Under the pieces are notes generated by a model. That model had not been told where the DNA came from, searched no databases, and was given only the letters and a program-made list of their open reading frames with translations. DNA of 64,000 bases, from the NCBI RefSeq assembly GCF_058153355.1, contig NZ_CM177019.1; one strand, given 5' to 3'. The position numbers and the translations under genes are program-made. The stretch's first letter is position 1, and the number at the start of each line of letters is the position of its first letter. Below, one piece after another: positions 2,396-32,900 of this stretch.

Positions 2396-3151
2396 TTAAC
2401 GCAAAATCTCACACTGATGATCCTGGATTTCCTCGGCTGAAGCACGGTTCAGCGTCAGTAGATTTCGTTGTGTCGCCAGCAACACAAACGAATTATCACT
2501 CTGCCGCACCATCGCCAGCCCGTAGCTTCCCATATGTTCCCGCGCCTCAGGCACTTCTTCTGCAAGCATCATAAATGGACTGCGTTGTACCAGTTCGCTT
2601 TCCGTTACCCGACGCGCCAGATATTCATGCCCGCGCAAGCCACCTGGCAGCGGCAACCAGCGACTGCTGATGTTCGCCAGATTATTATCCAGCTGTTCGC
2701 GCACATCAGGGCGAATACAAGAGATATGAATATGAAAATGGTTTTGCGTACGTCCGGTGCGGGAGTTAATCGCTAAAGAAACCGCGCGATCGGGAACCGG
2801 CTGCCCATATTTTTTACTCATAAAATCACGCGCCTGCCAGGCCAACCAAAAAAAGTTAGGCGTAGAAGGATCGGTCAACAAAGGGCTTTCAGTACCGTTA
2901 ATACGATACGTTGGCATCAACAGATATTGCAGTGGACCATTGAGGTCTTTTAAAACCACATATCCGGCATTGGGTTTGACTTCCGCACATGGCGAAGGAT
3001 TTTGATTTTGCTGCTGATTGGGTAAACATTCCTCAAGGACAATCTTACGTAATGTATCCGACTCTTCGCCGGTTAATTTCCAGTAACCAATACCAGCAGC
3101 CACAACGGCGATAACTATCATCACCAAAAAAAGAAGACCCGCTTTTTTCAT
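2396..3151 (-). CDS. cdh: CDP-diacylglycerol pyrophosphatase
   Basis: The longer ORF is 2396..3343. Start is placed at the internal ATG (3151..3149) that begins a membrane-anchor N-terminus ([24 protein letters not shown]), giving 251 aa. Confidence 0.85.
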
Positions 3152-4407: not shown

Positions 4408-4512
4408 TCCATGCCATATGCGGCGCGAACGCCTTATACGGCCTACAAAAGTTTGCAAATTCAATAAATTGCAGAATTCATGTAGGCCTGATAAGCGAAG
4501 CGCATCAGGCAT
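4408..4512. repeat. REP/BIME-type extragenic palindromes
   Basis: Motifs such as gcggcgcgaacgccttatacggcctac and gtaggcctgataagcgaagcgcatcaggc match the E. coli REP consensus. Confidence 0.75.
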
Positions 4513-5709: not shown

Positions 5710-6612
5710 TTATGAAAGCATAGACCGTTTACCCTCCCTGGGTACGACGGAACAGGGGTCCTGATGGATAATCACATCCGATCCCGGAAAACGCCGTAAA
5801 ATAGCCTGCTCTACCTGATCCGCCACCATATGTGCCTGAACCAAAGGCAGAGAGTCTTCCATTTCCAAATGAATCTGAATAAAGCGGGTCGGCCCTGACT
5901 GCCGCGTGCGAAGATCGTGAGCGCCGCTAACACCCGGCCAGGAAGTCACGATATCAATAATTTCTTGCCGTTCCTCATCAGGTAATGCGCGATCCAGTAA
6001 TGACTGTACCGCCTCATATCCCATGCGTAACGCGCTATATAAAATATAGATGCCAATTCCCAATGCAAACAGAGCATCGGCGCGATGCCAGCCGTACCAG
6101 GACAACCCCAGCGCCAGCAGAATTGCGCCGTTCATCATAACATCAGACTGGTAATGTAGCATATCAGCCCGCACCGCCTGGCTTTGCGTCCGGCGCACCA
6201 CCCACCGCTGAAACGAGACAAGGATAATCGTACAAATTAGCGCCACAATTGTCACGATAACCCCGACGCCTGGATCTGTCATCGGTGTTGGAGATACCAG
6301 ATGTTGAATACCCGTCAAAAACAGGAATAGTGCCGAACCGGAGATAAACATACTTTGCGCCAGCGCCGCGAGGGACTCAGCTTTACCGTGACCAAACGAG
6401 TGATTATCGTCGGCAGGTTGCAGGGAATATCGCACCACCAGTAAATTCGTCAACGACGCGCCGATATCCACCAGCGAATCCACCAGCGCGGCGAGAATAC
6501 TCACCGACCCGGTATACCACCATGCAAAAATTTTAATCAGCAATAGCAGCGAAGCCATCGCCGTTGCAGCAATCGCCGCCCGACTGACCAGCCGTCCATA
6601 AGATTGATTCAT
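5710..6612 (-). CDS. fieF: cation-diffusion-facilitator Zn/Fe efflux transporter
   Basis: 300 aa from internal ATG ([15 protein letters not shown]...); multi-pass membrane N-terminus plus cytoplasmic C-terminal domain. Confidence 0.9.
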
Positions 6613-6692
6613 AAATACTCCCGCTATCAACTGACGGTAGTATAACGGAAGCAAATCATCTGCAATGCATTAAGCAGTAGGCAAATTGAGGA

Positions 6693-6760
6693 TAAAAAAA
6701 AACCCCACATCATGTGGGGGAAGACAGGGATGGTGTCTATGGCAAGGAAAACAGGGTTTA
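6693..6760 (-). ncRNA. cpxQ: probable CpxQ sRNA (3' end-derived from cpxP mRNA) ending at the cpxP terminator
   Basis: Minus-strand GC hairpin (cccccacatgatgtgggg, 6703..6720) followed by a U-tract directly downstream of the cpxP stop. The sRNA assignment is established knowledge mapped by position. Confidence 0.45.
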
Positions 6761-7261
6761 CTACTGGGAACGTGAGTTGCTACTACTCAATAGCTTCAAC
6801 GATGAACTTTTTTGCCATTGCGTCACGTCGCGCAACTGCTCCATTCGTTGTTGATGTTTCTCGTTTAAAACCGCTTGCTGCTCCGGCGTTAACAGGCGAT
6901 ACATTTGGTTGCGGACTTTTGCCATCTCAACCTGACGAGCAATTTGCTCATTCGCCATTTTTTCTGCCTGTGCGCGCACAGCGTTTTCATCAAAATTTTC
7001 TGCGGTGACAAGGCGATGCATTGTCTCCAGTTCGCTAACATTAACAGGAGGCTGTTCGTGCCGGGCCTGTTGCATAAGATCTCGCATCTGCTGACGCTGA
7101 TGTTCGGTTAAACTTATGCCGTCGAACATATGGCTCTGCGTACTGCGCTGCGTAAGTTCTTCACCCGGATGCCAGTTATCGCCTGAACCGACTTCAGCAG
7201 CGTGGCTTAATGAACTGACTGCCAGCGTTGAGGCCATGACGGCAGCGGTAACTATGCGCAT
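6761..7261 (-). CDS. cpxP: periplasmic Cpx pathway inhibitor/adaptor
   Basis: 166 aa with signal peptide, divergent from cpxRA. Confidence 0.92.
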
Positions 7262-7340
7262 CATTTGCTCCCAAAATCTTTCTGTCGCGATTCAACGATA
7301 GAGAGTTTACGATTCAGGCTGCAAACATGCGTCAGGGGGT

Positions 7341-7355
7341 GTAAAACAACGTAAA
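7341..7355. promoter_or_regulatory. CpxR box in the cpxP-cpxRA divergent promoter region
   Basis: GTAAA-ACAAC-GTAAA matches the CpxR consensus GTAAA(N5)GTAAA. Confidence 0.7.
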
Positions 7356-7410
7356 GTCATGGATTAGCGACGTCTGATGACGTAATTTCTGCCTCGGAGG
7401 TATTTAAACA

Positions 7411-8109
7411 ATGAATAAAATCCTGTTAGTTGATGATGACCGAGAGCTGACTTCCCTGTTAAAGGAGCTGCTCGAGATGGAAGGCTTCAACGTGATTGTT
7501 GCCCACGATGGGGAGCAGGCGCTTGATCTTCTGGACGACAGCATTGATTTACTTTTGCTTGATGTCATGATGCCGAAGAAAAATGGTATCGACACATTAA
7601 AAGCACTTCGCCAGACACACCAGACGCCTGTCATTATGTTGACGGCGCGCGGCAGTGAACTTGATCGCGTTCTCGGCCTTGAGCTGGGCGCAGATGACTA
7701 TCTCCCGAAACCGTTTAATGATCGTGAGCTGGTGGCACGTATTCGCGCGATCCTGCGCCGTTCGCACTGGAGCGAGCAACAGCAAAACAACGACAACGGT
7801 TCACCGACACTGGAAGTTGATGCCTTAGTGCTGAATCCAGGCCGTCAGGAAGCCAGCTTCGACGGGCAAACGCTGGAGTTAACCGGCACTGAGTTTACCC
7901 TGCTCTATTTGCTGGCACAGCATCTGGGTCAGGTGGTTTCCCGTGAGCATTTAAGCCAGGAAGTGCTGGGCAAACGCCTGACGCCTTTCGACCGCGCTAT
8001 CGATATGCACATTTCCAACCTGCGTCGTAAACTGCCGGATCGTAAAGATGGTCACCCGTGGTTTAAAACCTTGCGTGGTCGCGGCTATCTGATGGTTTCT
8101 GCTTCATGA
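7411..8109 (+). CDS. cpxR: OmpR-family response regulator
   Basis: 232 aa; receiver domain and winged-helix C-terminus. Confidence 0.95.
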   Translation: MNKILLVDDDRELTSLLKELLEMEGFNVIVAHDGEQALDLLDDSIDLLLLDVMMPKKNGIDTLKALRQTHQTPVIMLTARGSELDRVLGLELGADDYLPKPFNDRELVARIRAILRRSHWSEQQQNNDNGSPTLEVDALVLNPGRQEASFDGQTLELTGTEFTLLYLLAQHLGQVVSREHLSQEVLGKRLTPFDRAIDMHISNLRRKLPDRKDGHPWFKTLRGRGYLMVSAS

Positions 8110-9479
8110 TAGGCAGCTTAACCGCGCGCATCTTCGCCATCTTCTGGCTGACGCTGGCGCTGGTGTTGATGTTGGTTTTGATGTTACCCAAGCTCGATTC
8201 ACGCCAGATGACCGAGCTTCTGGATAGCGAACAGCGTCAGGGGCTGATGATTGAGCAGCATGTCGAAGCGGAACTGGCGAACGATCCGCCCAACGATTTA
8301 ATGTGGTGGCGGCGTCTGTTCCGGGCGATTGATAAGTGGGCACCGCCAGGACAGCGTTTGTTATTGGTGACCACCGAGGGCCGCGTGATCGGCGCTGAAC
8401 GCAGCGAAATGCAGATCATTCGTAACTTTATTGGTCAGGCCGATAACGCCGATCACCCGCAAAAGAAAAAGTATGGCCGCGTGGAACTGGTCGGTCCGTT
8501 CTCCGTGCGTGATGGCGAAGATAATTACCAACTGTATCTGATTCGTCCGGCCAGCAGTTCTCAATCCGATTTCATTAACTTACTGTTTGACCGCCCGCTA
8601 TTACTGCTGATTGTGACTATGTTGGTCAGTACACCGTTGCTGTTGTGGTTGGCCTGGAGTCTGGCAAAACCGGCGCGTAAGCTGAAAAACGCTGCCGATG
8701 AAGTTGCCCAGGGGAACTTACGCCAGCATCCGGAACTGGAAGCGGGGCCACAGGAATTTCTTGCCGCTGGTGCCAGTTTTAACCAGATGGTGACCGCGCT
8801 GGAGCGCATGATGACCTCCCAGCAGCGCCTCCTTTCTGATATCTCTCACGAACTGCGCACGCCACTGACGCGCCTGCAACTGGGTACGGCGTTATTGCGC
8901 CGTCGTAGTGGTGAAAGCAAGGAACTGGAGCGTATTGAAACCGAAGCCCAGCGTCTGGACAGCATGATCAACGACCTGTTGGTGATGTCACGTAATCAGC
9001 AGAAAAACGCGCTGGTGAGCGAGACATTGAAAGCTAACCAGTTGTGGGGTGAAGTGCTGGATAACGCGGCGTTCGAAGCGGAACAAATGGGCAAGTCGTT
9101 TACGGTTAACTTCCCGCCTGGGCCGTGGCCTCTGTATGGCAACCCGAACGCTCTGGAAAGTGCGCTGGAAAACATTGTTCGTAATGCCCTGCGTTATTCC
9201 CATACGAAGATTGAGGTGGGCTTTGCGGTAGATAAAGATGGTATCACCATTACGGTGGACGACGATGGTCCTGGCGTTAGCCCGGAAGATCGCGAGCAGA
9301 TTTTCCGTCCGTTCTATCGCACCGATGAAGCGCGCGATCGTGAATCTGGCGGTACGGGCTTAGGGCTGGCGATTGTCGAAACAGCTATCCAGCAGCACCG
9401 TGGTTGGGTGAAGGCAGAAGACAGCCCGCTGGGCGGTTTGCGGCTGGTGATTTGGCTGCCGCTGTATAAGCGGAGTTAA
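8106..9479 (+). CDS. cpxA: envelope-stress sensor histidine kinase
   Basis: 457 aa; start overlaps the cpxR stop (ATGA); H-box SHELRTPLT and ATP-binding motifs. Confidence 0.95.
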   Translation: MIGSLTARIFAIFWLTLALVLMLVLMLPKLDSRQMTELLDSEQRQGLMIEQHVEAELANDPPNDLMWWRRLFRAIDKWAPPGQRLLLVTTEGRVIGAERSEMQIIRNFIGQADNADHPQKKKYGRVELVGPFSVRDGEDNYQLYLIRPASSSQSDFINLLFDRPLLLLIVTMLVSTPLLLWLAWSLAKPARKLKNAADEVAQGNLRQHPELEAGPQEFLAAGASFNQMVTALERMMTSQQRLLSDISHELRTPLTRLQLGTALLRRRSGESKELERIETEAQRLDSMINDLLVMSRNQQKNALVSETLKANQLWGEVLDNAAFEAEQMGKSFTVNFPPGPWPLYGNPNALESALENIVRNALRYSHTKIEVGFAVDKDGITITVDDDGPGVSPEDREQIFRPFYRTDEARDRESGGTGLGLAIVETAIQQHRGWVKAEDSPLGGLRLVIWLPLYKRS

Positions 9480-9486
9480 ACTCCGC

Positions 9487-9577
<91 letters not shown>

Positions 9578-25782: not shown

Positions 25783-25794
25783 CAGCAACCGGAG
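25783..25794. repeat. IS4 target-site duplication, left copy (CAGCAACCGGAG)
   Basis: 12-bp direct repeat flanking the element; identical copy at 27221..27232. Confidence 0.85.
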
Positions 25795-27220
25795 TAATGC
25801 CGATCAGTTAAGGATCAGTTGACCGATCCAGTGGCTGTGTAAGAATCCGGAAACGCTCACTTGTTTCCGGATTTTTTTATGCACATTGGACAGGCTCTTG
25901 ATCTGGTATCCCGTTACGATTCTCTGCGTAACCCACTGACTTCTCTGGGGGATTACCTCGACCCCGAACTCATCTCTCGTTGCCTTGCCGAATCAGGTAC
26001 TGTAACGCTACGCAAGCGCCGTCTTCCCCTCGAAATGATGGTCTGGTGTATTGTTGGCATGGCGCTTGAGCGTAAAGAACCTCTTCACCAGATTGTGAAT
26101 CGCCTGGACATCATGCTGCCGGGCAATCGCCCCTTCGTTGCCCCCAGTGCCGTTATTCAGGCCCGCCAGCGCCTGGGAAGTGAGGCTGTCCGCCGCGTGT
26201 TCACGAAAACAGCGCAGCTCTGGCATAACGCCACGCCGCATCCGCACTGGTGCGGCCTGACCCTGCTGGCCATCGATGGTGTGTTCTGGCGCACACCGGA
26301 TACACCAGAGAACGATGCAGCCTTCCCCCGCCAGACACATGCCGGGAACCCGGCGCTCTACCCGCAGGTCAAAATGGTCTGCCAGATGGAACTGACCAGC
26401 CATCTGCTGACGGCTGCAGCCTTCGGCACGATGAAGAACAGCGAAAATGAGCTTGCTGAGCAACTTATAGAACAAACCGGCGATAACACTCTGACGTTAA
26501 TGGATAAAGGTTATTACTCACTGGGACTGTTAAATGCCTGGAGCCTGGCGGGAGAACACCGCCACTGGATGATACCTCTCAGAAAGGGAGCGCAATATGA
26601 AGAGATCAGAAAACTGGGTAAAGGCGATCATCTGGTGAAGCTGAAAACCAGCCCGCAGGCACGAAAAAAGTGGCCGGGACTGGGAAATGAAGTGACAGCC
26701 CGCCTGCTGACCGTGACGCGCAAAGGAAAAGTCTGCCATCTGCTGACGTCGATGACGGACGCCATGCGCTTCCCCGGAGGAGAAATGGCGGATCTGTACA
26801 GTCATCGCTGGGAAATCGAACTGGGATACAGGGAGATAAAACAGACGATGCAACTGAGCAGGCTGACGCTGAGAAGTAAAAAGCCGGAGCTTGTGGAGCA
26901 AGAGCTGTGGGGTGTCTTACTGGCTTATAATCTGGTGAGATATCAGATGATTAAAATGGCGGAACATCTGAAAGGTTACTGGCCGAATCAACTGAGTTTC
27001 TCAGAATCATGCGGAATGGTGATGAGAATGCTGATGACATTGCAGGGCGCTTCACCGGGACGTATACCGGAGCTGATGCGCGATCTTGCAAGTATGGGAC
27101 AACTTGTGAAATTACCGACAAGAAGGGAAAGGGCCTTCCCGAGAGTGGTAAAGGAGAGGCCCTGGAAATACCCCACAGCCCCGAAAAAGAGCCAGTCAGT
27201 TGCTTAACTGACTGGCATTA
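25795..27220 (+). mobile_element. IS4 insertion sequence, complete (1426 bp)
   Basis: Imperfect 18-bp terminal inverted repeats (taatgccgatcagttaag / cttaactgactggcatta), one transposase ORF, length exactly 1426 bp, flanked by a 12-bp duplication. Confidence 0.93.
25879..27207 (+). CDS. insG: IS4 transposase (DDE)
   Basis: 442 aa from [27 protein letters not shown]...; recognised as the IS4 transposase. Confidence 0.92.
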
Positions 27221-27232
27221 CAGCAACCGGAG
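27221..27232. repeat. IS4 target-site duplication, right copy (CAGCAACCGGAG)
   Basis: Identical to 25783..25794. Confidence 0.85.
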
Positions 27233-29945: not shown

Positions 29946-32900
29946 ATGCAGGTCAGCAGAAGGCAGTTCTTTAAGATCTGCGCTGGCGGTATGGCAGGCA
30001 CCACGGCAGCGGCACTGGGTTTTGCACCCAGCGTAGCACTCGCGGAAACCCGGCAGTATAAACTGCTGCGCACCCGCGAAACCCGTAATACCTGCACCTA
30101 TTGTTCCGTAGGCTGTGGGCTGTTGATGTACAGCCTCGGTGACGGAGCAAAAAACGCCAAAGCATCTATCTTCCATATCGAAGGTGACCCGGATCACCCG
30201 GTCAACCGCGGTGCACTTTGTCCCAAAGGCGCTGGCCTGGTGGATTTCATCCACTCCGAAAGCCGTCTGAAGTTTCCGGAATACCGTGCCCCTGGTTCTG
30301 ATAAATGGCAGCAAATCAGTTGGGAAGAGGCGTTTGATCGCATTGCCAAACTGATGAAAGAAGACCGCGATGCTAACTACATTGCGCAAAACGCCGAAGG
30401 CGTGACTGTTAACCGCTGGCTCTCCACCGGGATGCTGTGTGCTTCCGCGTCGAGTAACGAAACCGGCTATTTAACGCAAAAATTCTCCCGCGCGCTGGGT
30501 ATGCTCGCGGTCGACAACCAGGCGCGTGTCTGACACGGACCAACGGTAGCAAGTCTTGCTCCAACATTTGGTCGCGGTGCGATGACCAACCACTGGGTCG
30601 ACATCAAGAACGCCAACCTCGTCGTGGTGATGGGCGGTAACGCCGCTGAAGCTCACCCGGTCGGGTTCCGCTGGGCGATGGAAGCCAAAATTCACAACGG
30701 CGCGAAGCTGATTGTGATCGATCCTCGCTTTACGCGTACGGCGGCGGTGGCTGACTACTATGCCCCTATTCGTTCCGGTACTGACATTGCTTTCCTGTCA
30801 GGCGTATTGCTGTACCTGCTGAACAATGAAAAATTCAACCGCGAATACACCGAAGCCTATACCAACGCCAGCCTGATCGTGCGTGAGGATTACGGCTTTG
30901 AAGATGGCCTGTTCACCGGCTACGACGCGGAAAAACGCAAGTACGATAAATCCTCCTGGACCTACGAGCTGGACGAAAACGGCTTCGCCAAACGCGATAC
31001 CACGCTGCAACATCCGCGCTGCGTGTGGAACTTGCTGAAACAGCACGTTTCCCGTTATACGCCAGATGTGGTTGAAAACATCTGTGGCACGCCGAAAGAC
31101 GCGTTCCTGAAAGTCTGCGAATACATCGCAGAGACCAGTGCTCACGATAAAACTGCCTCGTTCCTTTACGCGCTCGGCTGGACGCAACACTCCGTTGGTG
31201 CGCAGAACATTCGTACGATGGCGATGATCCAGCTACTGCTCGGCAATATGGGGATGGCAGGCGGCGGCGTTAACGCCCTGCGCGGTCACTCCAACATTCA
31301 GGGGCTGACGGACCTGGGGCTGCTGTCGCAGAGCCTGCCAGGTTACATGACGCTGCCAAGCGAGAAGCAGACCGATCTGCAAACCTACCTTGCCGCCAAC
31401 ACGCCAAAACCACTGCTGGAAGGCCAGGTTAACTACTGGGGCAATTACCCGAAATTCTTCGTCTCCATGATGAAGGCCTTCTTTGGTGATAAAGCGACGG
31501 CAGAAAACAGCTGGGGCTTTGACTGGTTGCCGAAGTGGGATAAAGGCTACGACGTCCTGCAATACTTCGAGATGATGAAAGAGGGCAAGGTCAATGGCTA
31601 TATCTGCCAGGGCTTTAACCCTGTTGCCTCATTCCCGAACAAAAACAAAGTGATCGGTTGTCTGTCGAAACTGAAGTTCCTCGTCACTATCGACCCGCTG
31701 AACACTGAAACCTCTAACTTCTGGCAGAACCACGGTGAGCTGAACGAAGTGGACTCGTCGAAGATCCAGACCGAAGTGTTCCGTCTGCCATCGACCTGCT
31801 TCGCGGAAGAGAACGGTTCAATCGTTAACTCCGGTCGCTGGTTGCAGTGGCACTGGAAAGGTGCGGACGCCCCAGGGATTGCGCTGACTGATGGCGAGAT
31901 CCTCTCCGGTATCTTCCTGCGCTTGCGCAAGATGTACGCCGAACAGGGTGGCGCGAACCCGGACCAGGTGCTGAACATGACCTGGAACTACGCCATCCCG
32001 CATGAGCCGAAGTCGGAAGAAGTGGCGATGGAGAGCAACGGTAAGGCGCTGGCCGATATTACCGATCCGGCAACCGGGGCGGTTATCGTCAAGAAAGGCC
32101 AACAACTTAGCTCGTTCGCCCAACTGCGCGATGACGGTACCACCTCCTGTGGCTGCTGGATTTTCGCCGGTAGCTGGACGCCAGAGGGCAACCAGATGGC
32201 ACGCCGTGATAACGCCGATCCGTCTGGCCTCGGTAACACGCTGGGCTGGGCATGGGCATGGCCGCTTAACCGCCGCATTCTGTATAACCGCGCCTCCGCA
32301 GATCCGCAGGGTAACCCGTGGGATCCGAAGCGTCAGTTGCTGAAATGGGACGGCACTAAGTGGACCGGCTGGGATATTCCGGACTACAGCGCAGCGCCTC
32401 CGGGCAGTGGCGTCGGGCCGTTTATCATGCAGCAGGAAGGCATGGGGCGTCTGTTTGCTCTCGATAAGATGGCGGAAGGTCCGTTCCCGGAACACTACGA
32501 GCCGTTTGAAACGCCGCTGGGAACTAACCCACTGCATCCAAACGTTATCTCGAACCCGGCTGCGCGAATCTTTAAAGACGATGCCGAAGCATTGGGTAAA
32601 GCCGATAAGTTCCCGTATGTCGGAACCACCTATCGTCTGACCGAGCACTTCCACTACTGGACCAAACACGCGCTGTTGAATGCGATTTTGCAGCCAGAGC
32701 AGTTTGTGGAAATCGGGGAGTCGCTGGCGAATAAACTTGGCATTGCTCAGGGCGATACCGTGAAAGTCTCCTCCAACCGTGGCTATATCAAAGCCAAAGC
32801 GGTGGTGACCAAACGTATTCGTACGCTAAAAGCGAACGGCAAAGATATCGATACCATCGGTATTCCGATTCACTGGGGCTATGAAGGTGTTGCGAAAAAA

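Follow-up and report, generated by a model that had tools for sequence, protein, structure and literature searches.

The cpx locus and its genomic setting

The DNA analysed here, a single stretch of 64,000 nucleotides referred to below as the window, carries what its sequence identifies as part of the core E. coli chromosome, with the gene neighbourhood tpiA-pfkA-fieF-cpxP-cpxR-cpxA. Read from left to right on the plus strand, the list of open reading frames gives pfkA (minus strand), fieF (5710..6612, minus), cpxP (6761..7261, minus), cpxR (7411..8109, plus) and cpxA (8106..9479, plus). The cpxP gene encodes 166 amino acids and ends in a TAG codon at 6763..6761; its coordinates agree with the RefSeq annotation of NZ_CP074749.1, where the stretch is identical. 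Between cpxP and cpxR lies a divergent regulatory region of 149 bp (7262..7410), which is 100% identical to that of K-12 MG1655. The proteins follow the same line, since CpxP (166/166 residues) and the response regulator CpxR (232/232) are identical to those of K-12, and the sensor kinase CpxA, of 457 residues, is full length and identical at 454 of them, the substitutions being I308L, S315G and L332F. The preliminary description of this DNA, made from its letters, had held the Cpx module to be intact, and this proved correct. It had delimited the region as 6693-7410, where the right end is exact, 7410 being the last base before the cpxR ATG, while the left end falls one base past the end of the U-tract (6702..6694).

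An 851-bp probe (6600..7450) matched 5,425 of 5,426 complete E. coli genomes, with at least 99% identity in 5,418 records, and the features lying under these matches were always annotated as cpxP, cpxR and fieF. The order of the locus, fieF, cpxP, cpxR and cpxA, is that of annotated E. coli chromosomes.

The 3' two-thirds of cpxA (about 8600..9480) diverge from K-12 by about 5% at the DNA level, with cpxP and cpxR being about 100% identical. A 121-bp cpxA probe (9000..9120) found 90-95% identity in 5,145 of 5,422 E. coli genomes and 95% or more in only 260, so that the 3' part of the gene is probably a rare, recombinant allele beside an otherwise typical cpxP-cpxR pair.

The preliminary description had also mentioned nearby mobile-element activity. 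Such elements do exist in the window, but the word nearby was loose, and both lie too far away to bear on cpx. The nearest is an IS4 of 1,426 bp (25795..27220), with terminal inverted repeats of 18-19 bp and a 12-bp target duplication, CAGCAACCGGAG; together with its duplication it spans 25783..27232, about 18 kb from the CpxR boxes, splits frvR and is absent from the otherwise collinear NZ_CP074749.1. The other is a Mu-like prophage, which begins at about 46.8 kb, some 37 kb past cpxA and immediately behind yihS of the sulfoquinovose (yih) cluster, and reaches the window end (64000); its genes include Mom (46902..47627), a tail fibre, baseplate J, a gp44/GpP hub, a DNA circularisation protein, a tape measure and a sheath. 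In addition, the variable yiiE-fabY region holds a reading frame of 637 amino acids (36597..38510, minus) without a Pfam match, in place of which NZ_CP074749.1 carries a transposase and a truncated gene.

CpxR sites in the divergent region

Two CpxR boxes are found in the divergent region, both written here on the plus strand. Box 1, GTAAAACAACGTAAA (7341..7355), is a perfect tandem GTAAA-N5-GTAAA whose end lies 56 bp upstream of the cpxR ATG, and box 2, GCAAACATGCGTCAG (7321..7335), is a degenerate site whose start lies 20 bp from that of box 1. In a compilation of known CpxR sites the same sequences are listed as 'cpxR/cpxP1 GTAAAACAACGTAAA' and 'cpxR/cpxP2 GCAAACATGCGTCAG' (PMC9600279 Table S1). 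By this identity, the boxes can be taken to be the documented CpxR sites of cpxP/cpxR. The CpxR box that the preliminary description had placed between the two genes was thus recovered as an exact match, identical to a compiled site. Moreover, both sites for CpxR~P at cpxP/cpxRA (consensus GTAAA-N5-GTAAA) are unchanged with respect to K-12, as are the rest of the promoter region and the CpxR protein. The orthologous box of Yersinia pseudotuberculosis, situated about 55 nt before cpxR, has been footprinted with DNase I and assayed by EMSA, and its mutation reduces the binding of CpxR~P (PMC3158067).

A motif of this kind could arise by chance and have no regulatory meaning, and in its relaxed form it is indeed no commoner than chance, as four occurrences with one mismatch were found in the window and 3.3 were expected. 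Nevertheless, the exact motif occurs only once in the 64 kb, where 0.06 would be expected, and it does so in the cpxP-cpxR intergenic region, as a copy of a compiled CpxR site and in surroundings 100% identical to K-12, so that a chance match is scarcely conceivable.

A generic promoter scan of 6500..7600 returned no sigma-70-like site for cpxP or cpxR, an outcome which is compatible with weak, activator-dependent promoters but uninformative. We infer that the -10 element of cpxP may be TATCGT (7300..7295), which would set box 2 at about -40 and box 1 at about -60 relative to cpxP; this placement is constrained only by the native cpxP transcription start, which lies within 44 bp of the ATG (PMC4817254).

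CpxQ and its terminator

On the minus strand, the terminator scan found the stem-loop CCCCACATGATGTGGGG (6719..6703), with seven pairs, five of them G-C, and a 3-nt loop (UGA), followed by TTTTTTTTTA, that is, a tract of nine U (6702..6694). The hairpin starts 42 nt past the cpxP stop codon. Folding of the RNA from 6765 to 6690 gave the same hairpin together with a small upstream stem, at -14.4 kcal/mol. The GC hairpin with a U-tract that had been described after the cpxP stop is therefore present. Calling it strong was slightly generous, since it is a terminator of 7 bp with a predicted energy of -11.4 kcal/mol, the weakest among the 50 variants listed below.

In the annotation of K-12 MG1655, the ncRNA cpxQ (b4716, 58 nt) begins 10 nt after cpxP. 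Its gapless alignment with the window, identical at 56 of 58 positions, assigns CpxQ to positions 6751..6694 of the minus strand, the strand of cpxP, with its 5' end likewise 10 nt past the stop codon, which bears out the CpxQ position given in the preliminary description. Nucleotides 1-41 are those of K-12, including the 5' seed for nhaB and cfa, and C11 is present; the processing site likewise lies in sequence identical to K-12. The closest known RNA is thus CpxQ itself (b4716 of K-12, and the Salmonella CpxQ reportedly described by Chao & Vogel 2016; also Grabowicz et al. 2016). The window has the same locus, strand and distance from the cpxP stop, and shares with K-12 CpxQ the 5' seed, the internal stem (a 5-bp stem-loop, AGACA / UGUCU, at 6722..6738 in the predicted minimum-free-energy fold), the architecture of two hairpins and a U-tailed Rho-independent terminator.

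Taken as bare patterns, neither the hairpin nor the fold energy stands out statistically: two terminator-like sites were found and 1.5 were expected in shuffled sequences, and the z-score of the 6765..6690 fold was only -1.42. That the hairpin is real follows instead from the identity to K-12 cpxQ at 56 of 58 positions, from its occurrence in 5,425 of the 5,426 complete E. coli genomes and from compensatory changes of the stem in Enterobacterales. On comparative grounds, it is taken to be the Rho-independent terminator which would form the 3' end of CpxQ.

Conservation of CpxQ across genera

Species-representative genomes were scanned with the pattern CTGTTTNCCTTGCCAN{7,10}TCCCTG, which gave at least 120 matches. 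Four of these, in metagenome-assembled genomes labelled Lachnospiraceae, Bacteroidales and Planctomycetota, had neither the hairpin nor an upstream CpxP and were discarded as chance. Among the matches listed there were 116 CpxQ loci, 112 of them with enough upstream sequence to be tested, and a CpxP homologue (48-98% amino acid identity) was encoded upstream on the same strand in 111 of these 112; in 89 of the loci among the matches listed, FieF followed directly downstream, also on the same strand. These listed matches comprise 50 distinct CpxQ sequences, in which the first 30 nt, nine pattern-free positions included, are invariant, except that a few Pantoea-type variants lack one nucleotide. 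The arms of the terminator do vary, as in CCCCCACA/UGUGGGGG, CCCCCUCA/UGAGGGGG, CCCCGCCA/UGGCGGGG, GCCCUCCA/UGGAGGGC and others, and all the variants among those listed fold, with energies between -11.4 and -17.7 kcal/mol.

Covariation was assessed on a MAFFT alignment of 42 variants from Enterobacterales, in which the hairpins with longer loops are one column out of register, so that the counts are conservative. The terminator stem showed two-sided changes at three pairs, in 28 cells, a figure reached by none of 500 shuffles, and 87% of the cells were paired in the terminator structure, compared with at most 58% in slid registers. Taken together, covariation and the register test indicate that the hairpin is a selected structure. 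The internal stem AGACA / UGUCU is invariant in 42 of the 42 aligned variants, which makes covariation uninformative there, either way.

It could be argued that the hairpin serves only to end cpxP transcription and that the window strain makes no functional small RNA from it, since the pattern, at two sites for 1.5 expected in shuffles, is that of an ordinary intrinsic terminator. Against this, the 41 nt preceding the polymorphic positions of the terminator, the experimentally defined seed among them, are those of K-12 CpxQ, and the 5' 30 nt hold, apart from the 1-nt deletion of a few Pantoea-type variants, across genera in which CpxP itself is only about 50% identical. Such conservation of the 5' part is insufficiently explained by termination alone, and a hairpin without a functional small RNA is very improbable.

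The G50 to U terminator allele

Only two substitutions separate CpxQ of the window from that of K-12, and both fall within the terminator. At nt 42 (6710, in the loop) the window has A and K-12 has C; at nt 50 (6702) it has U where K-12 has G, by which the closing C-G pair is lost, the stem being of 7 bp as compared with 8 and the U-tract of nine as compared with eight. The predicted energy is -11.4 kcal/mol for the window hairpin and -13.7 for that of K-12, and -14.4 and -17.4 kcal/mol, respectively, for the whole CpxQ. As for mutations that would destroy hairpin or box relative to reference sequences, a concern of the preliminary description, the box is unchanged, and the hairpin, although altered by these two substitutions, keeps a 7-bp stem followed by nine U.

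The exact 76-nt sequence of the window (6763..6688) is found in 253 of 5,426 E. coli records (about 4.7%), which makes G50 to U a minority allele, carried by about 5% of the complete records of the species. From the window 76-mer, most of the remaining records deviate at a single base, and K-12-like strains at two. Strain SF-166, with one mismatch, has the loop A and five G's; the loop C of K-12 is therefore itself a variant, and the A at nt 42 is the allele of SF-166 and of most genera sampled. Furthermore, the terminator version of the window is shared with Citrobacter werkmanii, and equivalent 7-bp stems exist in Pantoea stewartii and Pluralibacter gergoviae.

With the closing pair lost, the predicted energies suggest that the terminator could be somewhat less efficient or CpxQ somewhat less stable. 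A stronger form of this idea is that the substitution weakens the terminator to the point of yielding less CpxQ, or of allowing read-through from the strongly induced cpxP promoter into fieF, which follows on the same strand, 82 bp after the U-tract. The change from -13.7 to -11.4 kcal/mol, the shortening of the stem from 8 to 7 bp and the rank of this hairpin as the weakest among the 50 variants listed speak in its favour. Nevertheless, the same substitution lengthens the U-tract from eight to nine, which favours termination, and a 7-bp stem with five G-C pairs and nine U is still a canonical terminator. Moreover, the allele is found in 253 of 5,426 records and again in Citrobacter werkmanii, and Pantoea stewartii and Pluralibacter gergoviae possess stems equivalent to it, which argues that it is tolerated in nature. 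Hence, an appreciable weakening of the terminator seems unlikely, and a working terminator is the reading retained here.

A phage attachment core within cpxQ

The 3' part of cpxQ coincides with a 47-nt core (6691..6737, minus strand) common with the attP of WPhi-type P2-like phages, which would make it the corresponding attB. This core, GACACCATCCCTGTCTTCCCCCACATGATGTGGGGGTTTTTTTTATC, corresponds to CpxQ nt 15-58, that is, the 3' 44 nt, plus 3 nt downstream, and differs between the WPhi-type phages and the window by a single mismatch, the G50 to U position at 6702. Since the phage cores have G there, acquisition of the U from a phage core was considered and rejected. A search of phage records yielded 62 with this core, among them Peduovirus Wphi, fiAA91-ss and P2-like phages of Salmonella and Yersinia.

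A short probe (6763..6688) matched 6,098 places in the 5,426 E. coli records. One extra match belonged to a circular P2-like element of 32 kb, in which it stood 108 bp away from the integrase gene, and in another genome cpxP was followed directly by int and a P2-type prophage (a cpxP|int junction); outside the window, core coordinates are 3001..3045 in locus L004 and about 20001..20190 in L006. In the window the site is empty, fieF following directly. The genome paper of E. coli W gives cpxP-fieF as the location of prophage Wphi1 (PMC3032704); our literature search found no paper linking CpxQ with prophage integration. The attR was sought in one region of NZ_CP019944.1 and was not found there, the region holding an IS26/ISCR1/CTX-M-14 resistance island.

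Among the matches listed, a P2-type integrase or a remnant of one stood directly after CpxQ in 3 of about 82 species genomes whose downstream sequence was long enough (loci L092, L094 and L124), two of them with a CpxQ like that of the Pantoea group and one a Yersinia-type locus, which suggests that use of the attachment site extends beyond Escherichia and Salmonella. By the overlap of the two sequences, the CpxQ terminator appears to double as the attachment core of P2-like phages.

Rfam models and the CpxQ strand

The Rfam search gave no match of a CpxQ family to the window on the correct strand. What it did give was a match of RF02628, Hrs1, to 6695..6766 on the plus strand, opposite to cpxP and CpxQ, with 41.6 bits, below the gathering score of 56.4; on the transcribed strand the window likewise stays below the Hrs1 threshold. 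Above-threshold matches, with 68-69 bits, were obtained in Erwinia and Pantoea loci, again opposite to the cpxP strand. In fact, in every locus tested the Hrs1 match (1373..1446 in L052, 3606..3679 in L061 and 2800..2873 in L083) ran on the strand opposite to cpxP/CpxQ, and the opposite-strand matches in Erwinia and Pantoea indicate that the strand problem belongs to the model and not to the window. The Hrs1 consensus starts with seven A followed by a hairpin, which is a terminator in reverse complement.

Hrs1, the Hfq-regulated sRNA 1 of Erwinia amylovora, lies between cpxP and fieF, in the orientation of both (PMC4070566). With this position and orientation it would be the Erwinia counterpart of CpxQ: the stretch and the gene setting are the same as those of CpxQ, and only the Rfam model is on the opposite strand. 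The model thus seems to represent the CpxQ orthologue in reverse complement.

At the gathering threshold, the search of the whole window returned only naRNA4 (9494..9571, plus, just after cpxA), ES036 (4448..4489, plus, upstream of pfkA) and SECIS_3 (30528..30586, plus, in the gene of the formate dehydrogenase alpha subunit); the first two we take to be putative REP-type repeats.

Discussion

The sequence identity, the position and strand, the foldability, the conservation across genera, the covariation and the intact proteins are established for this locus, and we regard it, with a confidence close to certainty, as the canonical Cpx envelope-stress effector unit of E. coli. No promoter is induced by Cpx more strongly than that of cpxP, and the 3' UTR of the cpxP transcript yields CpxQ (PMC4817254), which is produced through RNase E and Hfq (PMC9438474; PMC4817254) and represses nhaB, skp, agp, ydjN, fimA and cfa (PMC9438474). 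The 5' end of the molecule acts as its seed, and the exchange C11G abolishes most of the repression of cfa (PMC6755755). These sequence determinants of biogenesis and targeting, as far as the literature defines them, read as unchanged in the window.

By analogy with the published work on K-12 and Salmonella, which is what CpxR binding, RNase E processing, Hfq dependence and target regulation would rest on in the window strain, the unit can be pictured as follows. CpxR~P would bind the tandem boxes of the divergent region (7341..7355 and 7321..7335), activating the cpxP promoter leftward and autoregulating cpxRA rightward. The cpxP transcript would end at the intrinsic terminator, made up of the stem-loop 6719..6703 and the nine U, and RNase E, together with Hfq, would cut the mRNA about 10 nt past the stop codon, releasing the 58-nt CpxQ (6751..6694). 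Its single-stranded 5' seed would then pair with target mRNAs such as nhaB, skp, cfa and others, the terminator hairpin and the U tail serving as a standard Hfq-binding 3' module.

The G50 to U allele is the point at which this lineage may depart from the general picture. Since nt 50 lies inside the 47-nt WPhi-type att core, the substitution may alter, besides the formation of the CpxQ 3' end or the binding of Hfq, the susceptibility of the lineage to WPhi-type lysogeny, and it may let Cpx-induced transcription into the metal exporter gene fieF; as a whole, this set of consequences is improbable.

CpxQ with its terminator, and the CpxR sites, make up what is to all appearances a well-characterised envelope-stress locus of E. 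coli, already known and essentially identical to the reference, and the significance of the present description beyond annotation is small. It does make CpxQ annotatable at 6751..6694, which Rfam-based pipelines will miss. For curators, three points may be useful, namely the orientation of the Hrs1 model, the overlap between terminator and attachment core, and the existence of a natural terminator allele, one pair shorter, in about 5% of complete E. coli genomes. As for the strain itself, its sequence points to a complete Cpx effector unit, with the CpxR boxes, cpxP, CpxQ, cpxR and cpxA all in place.
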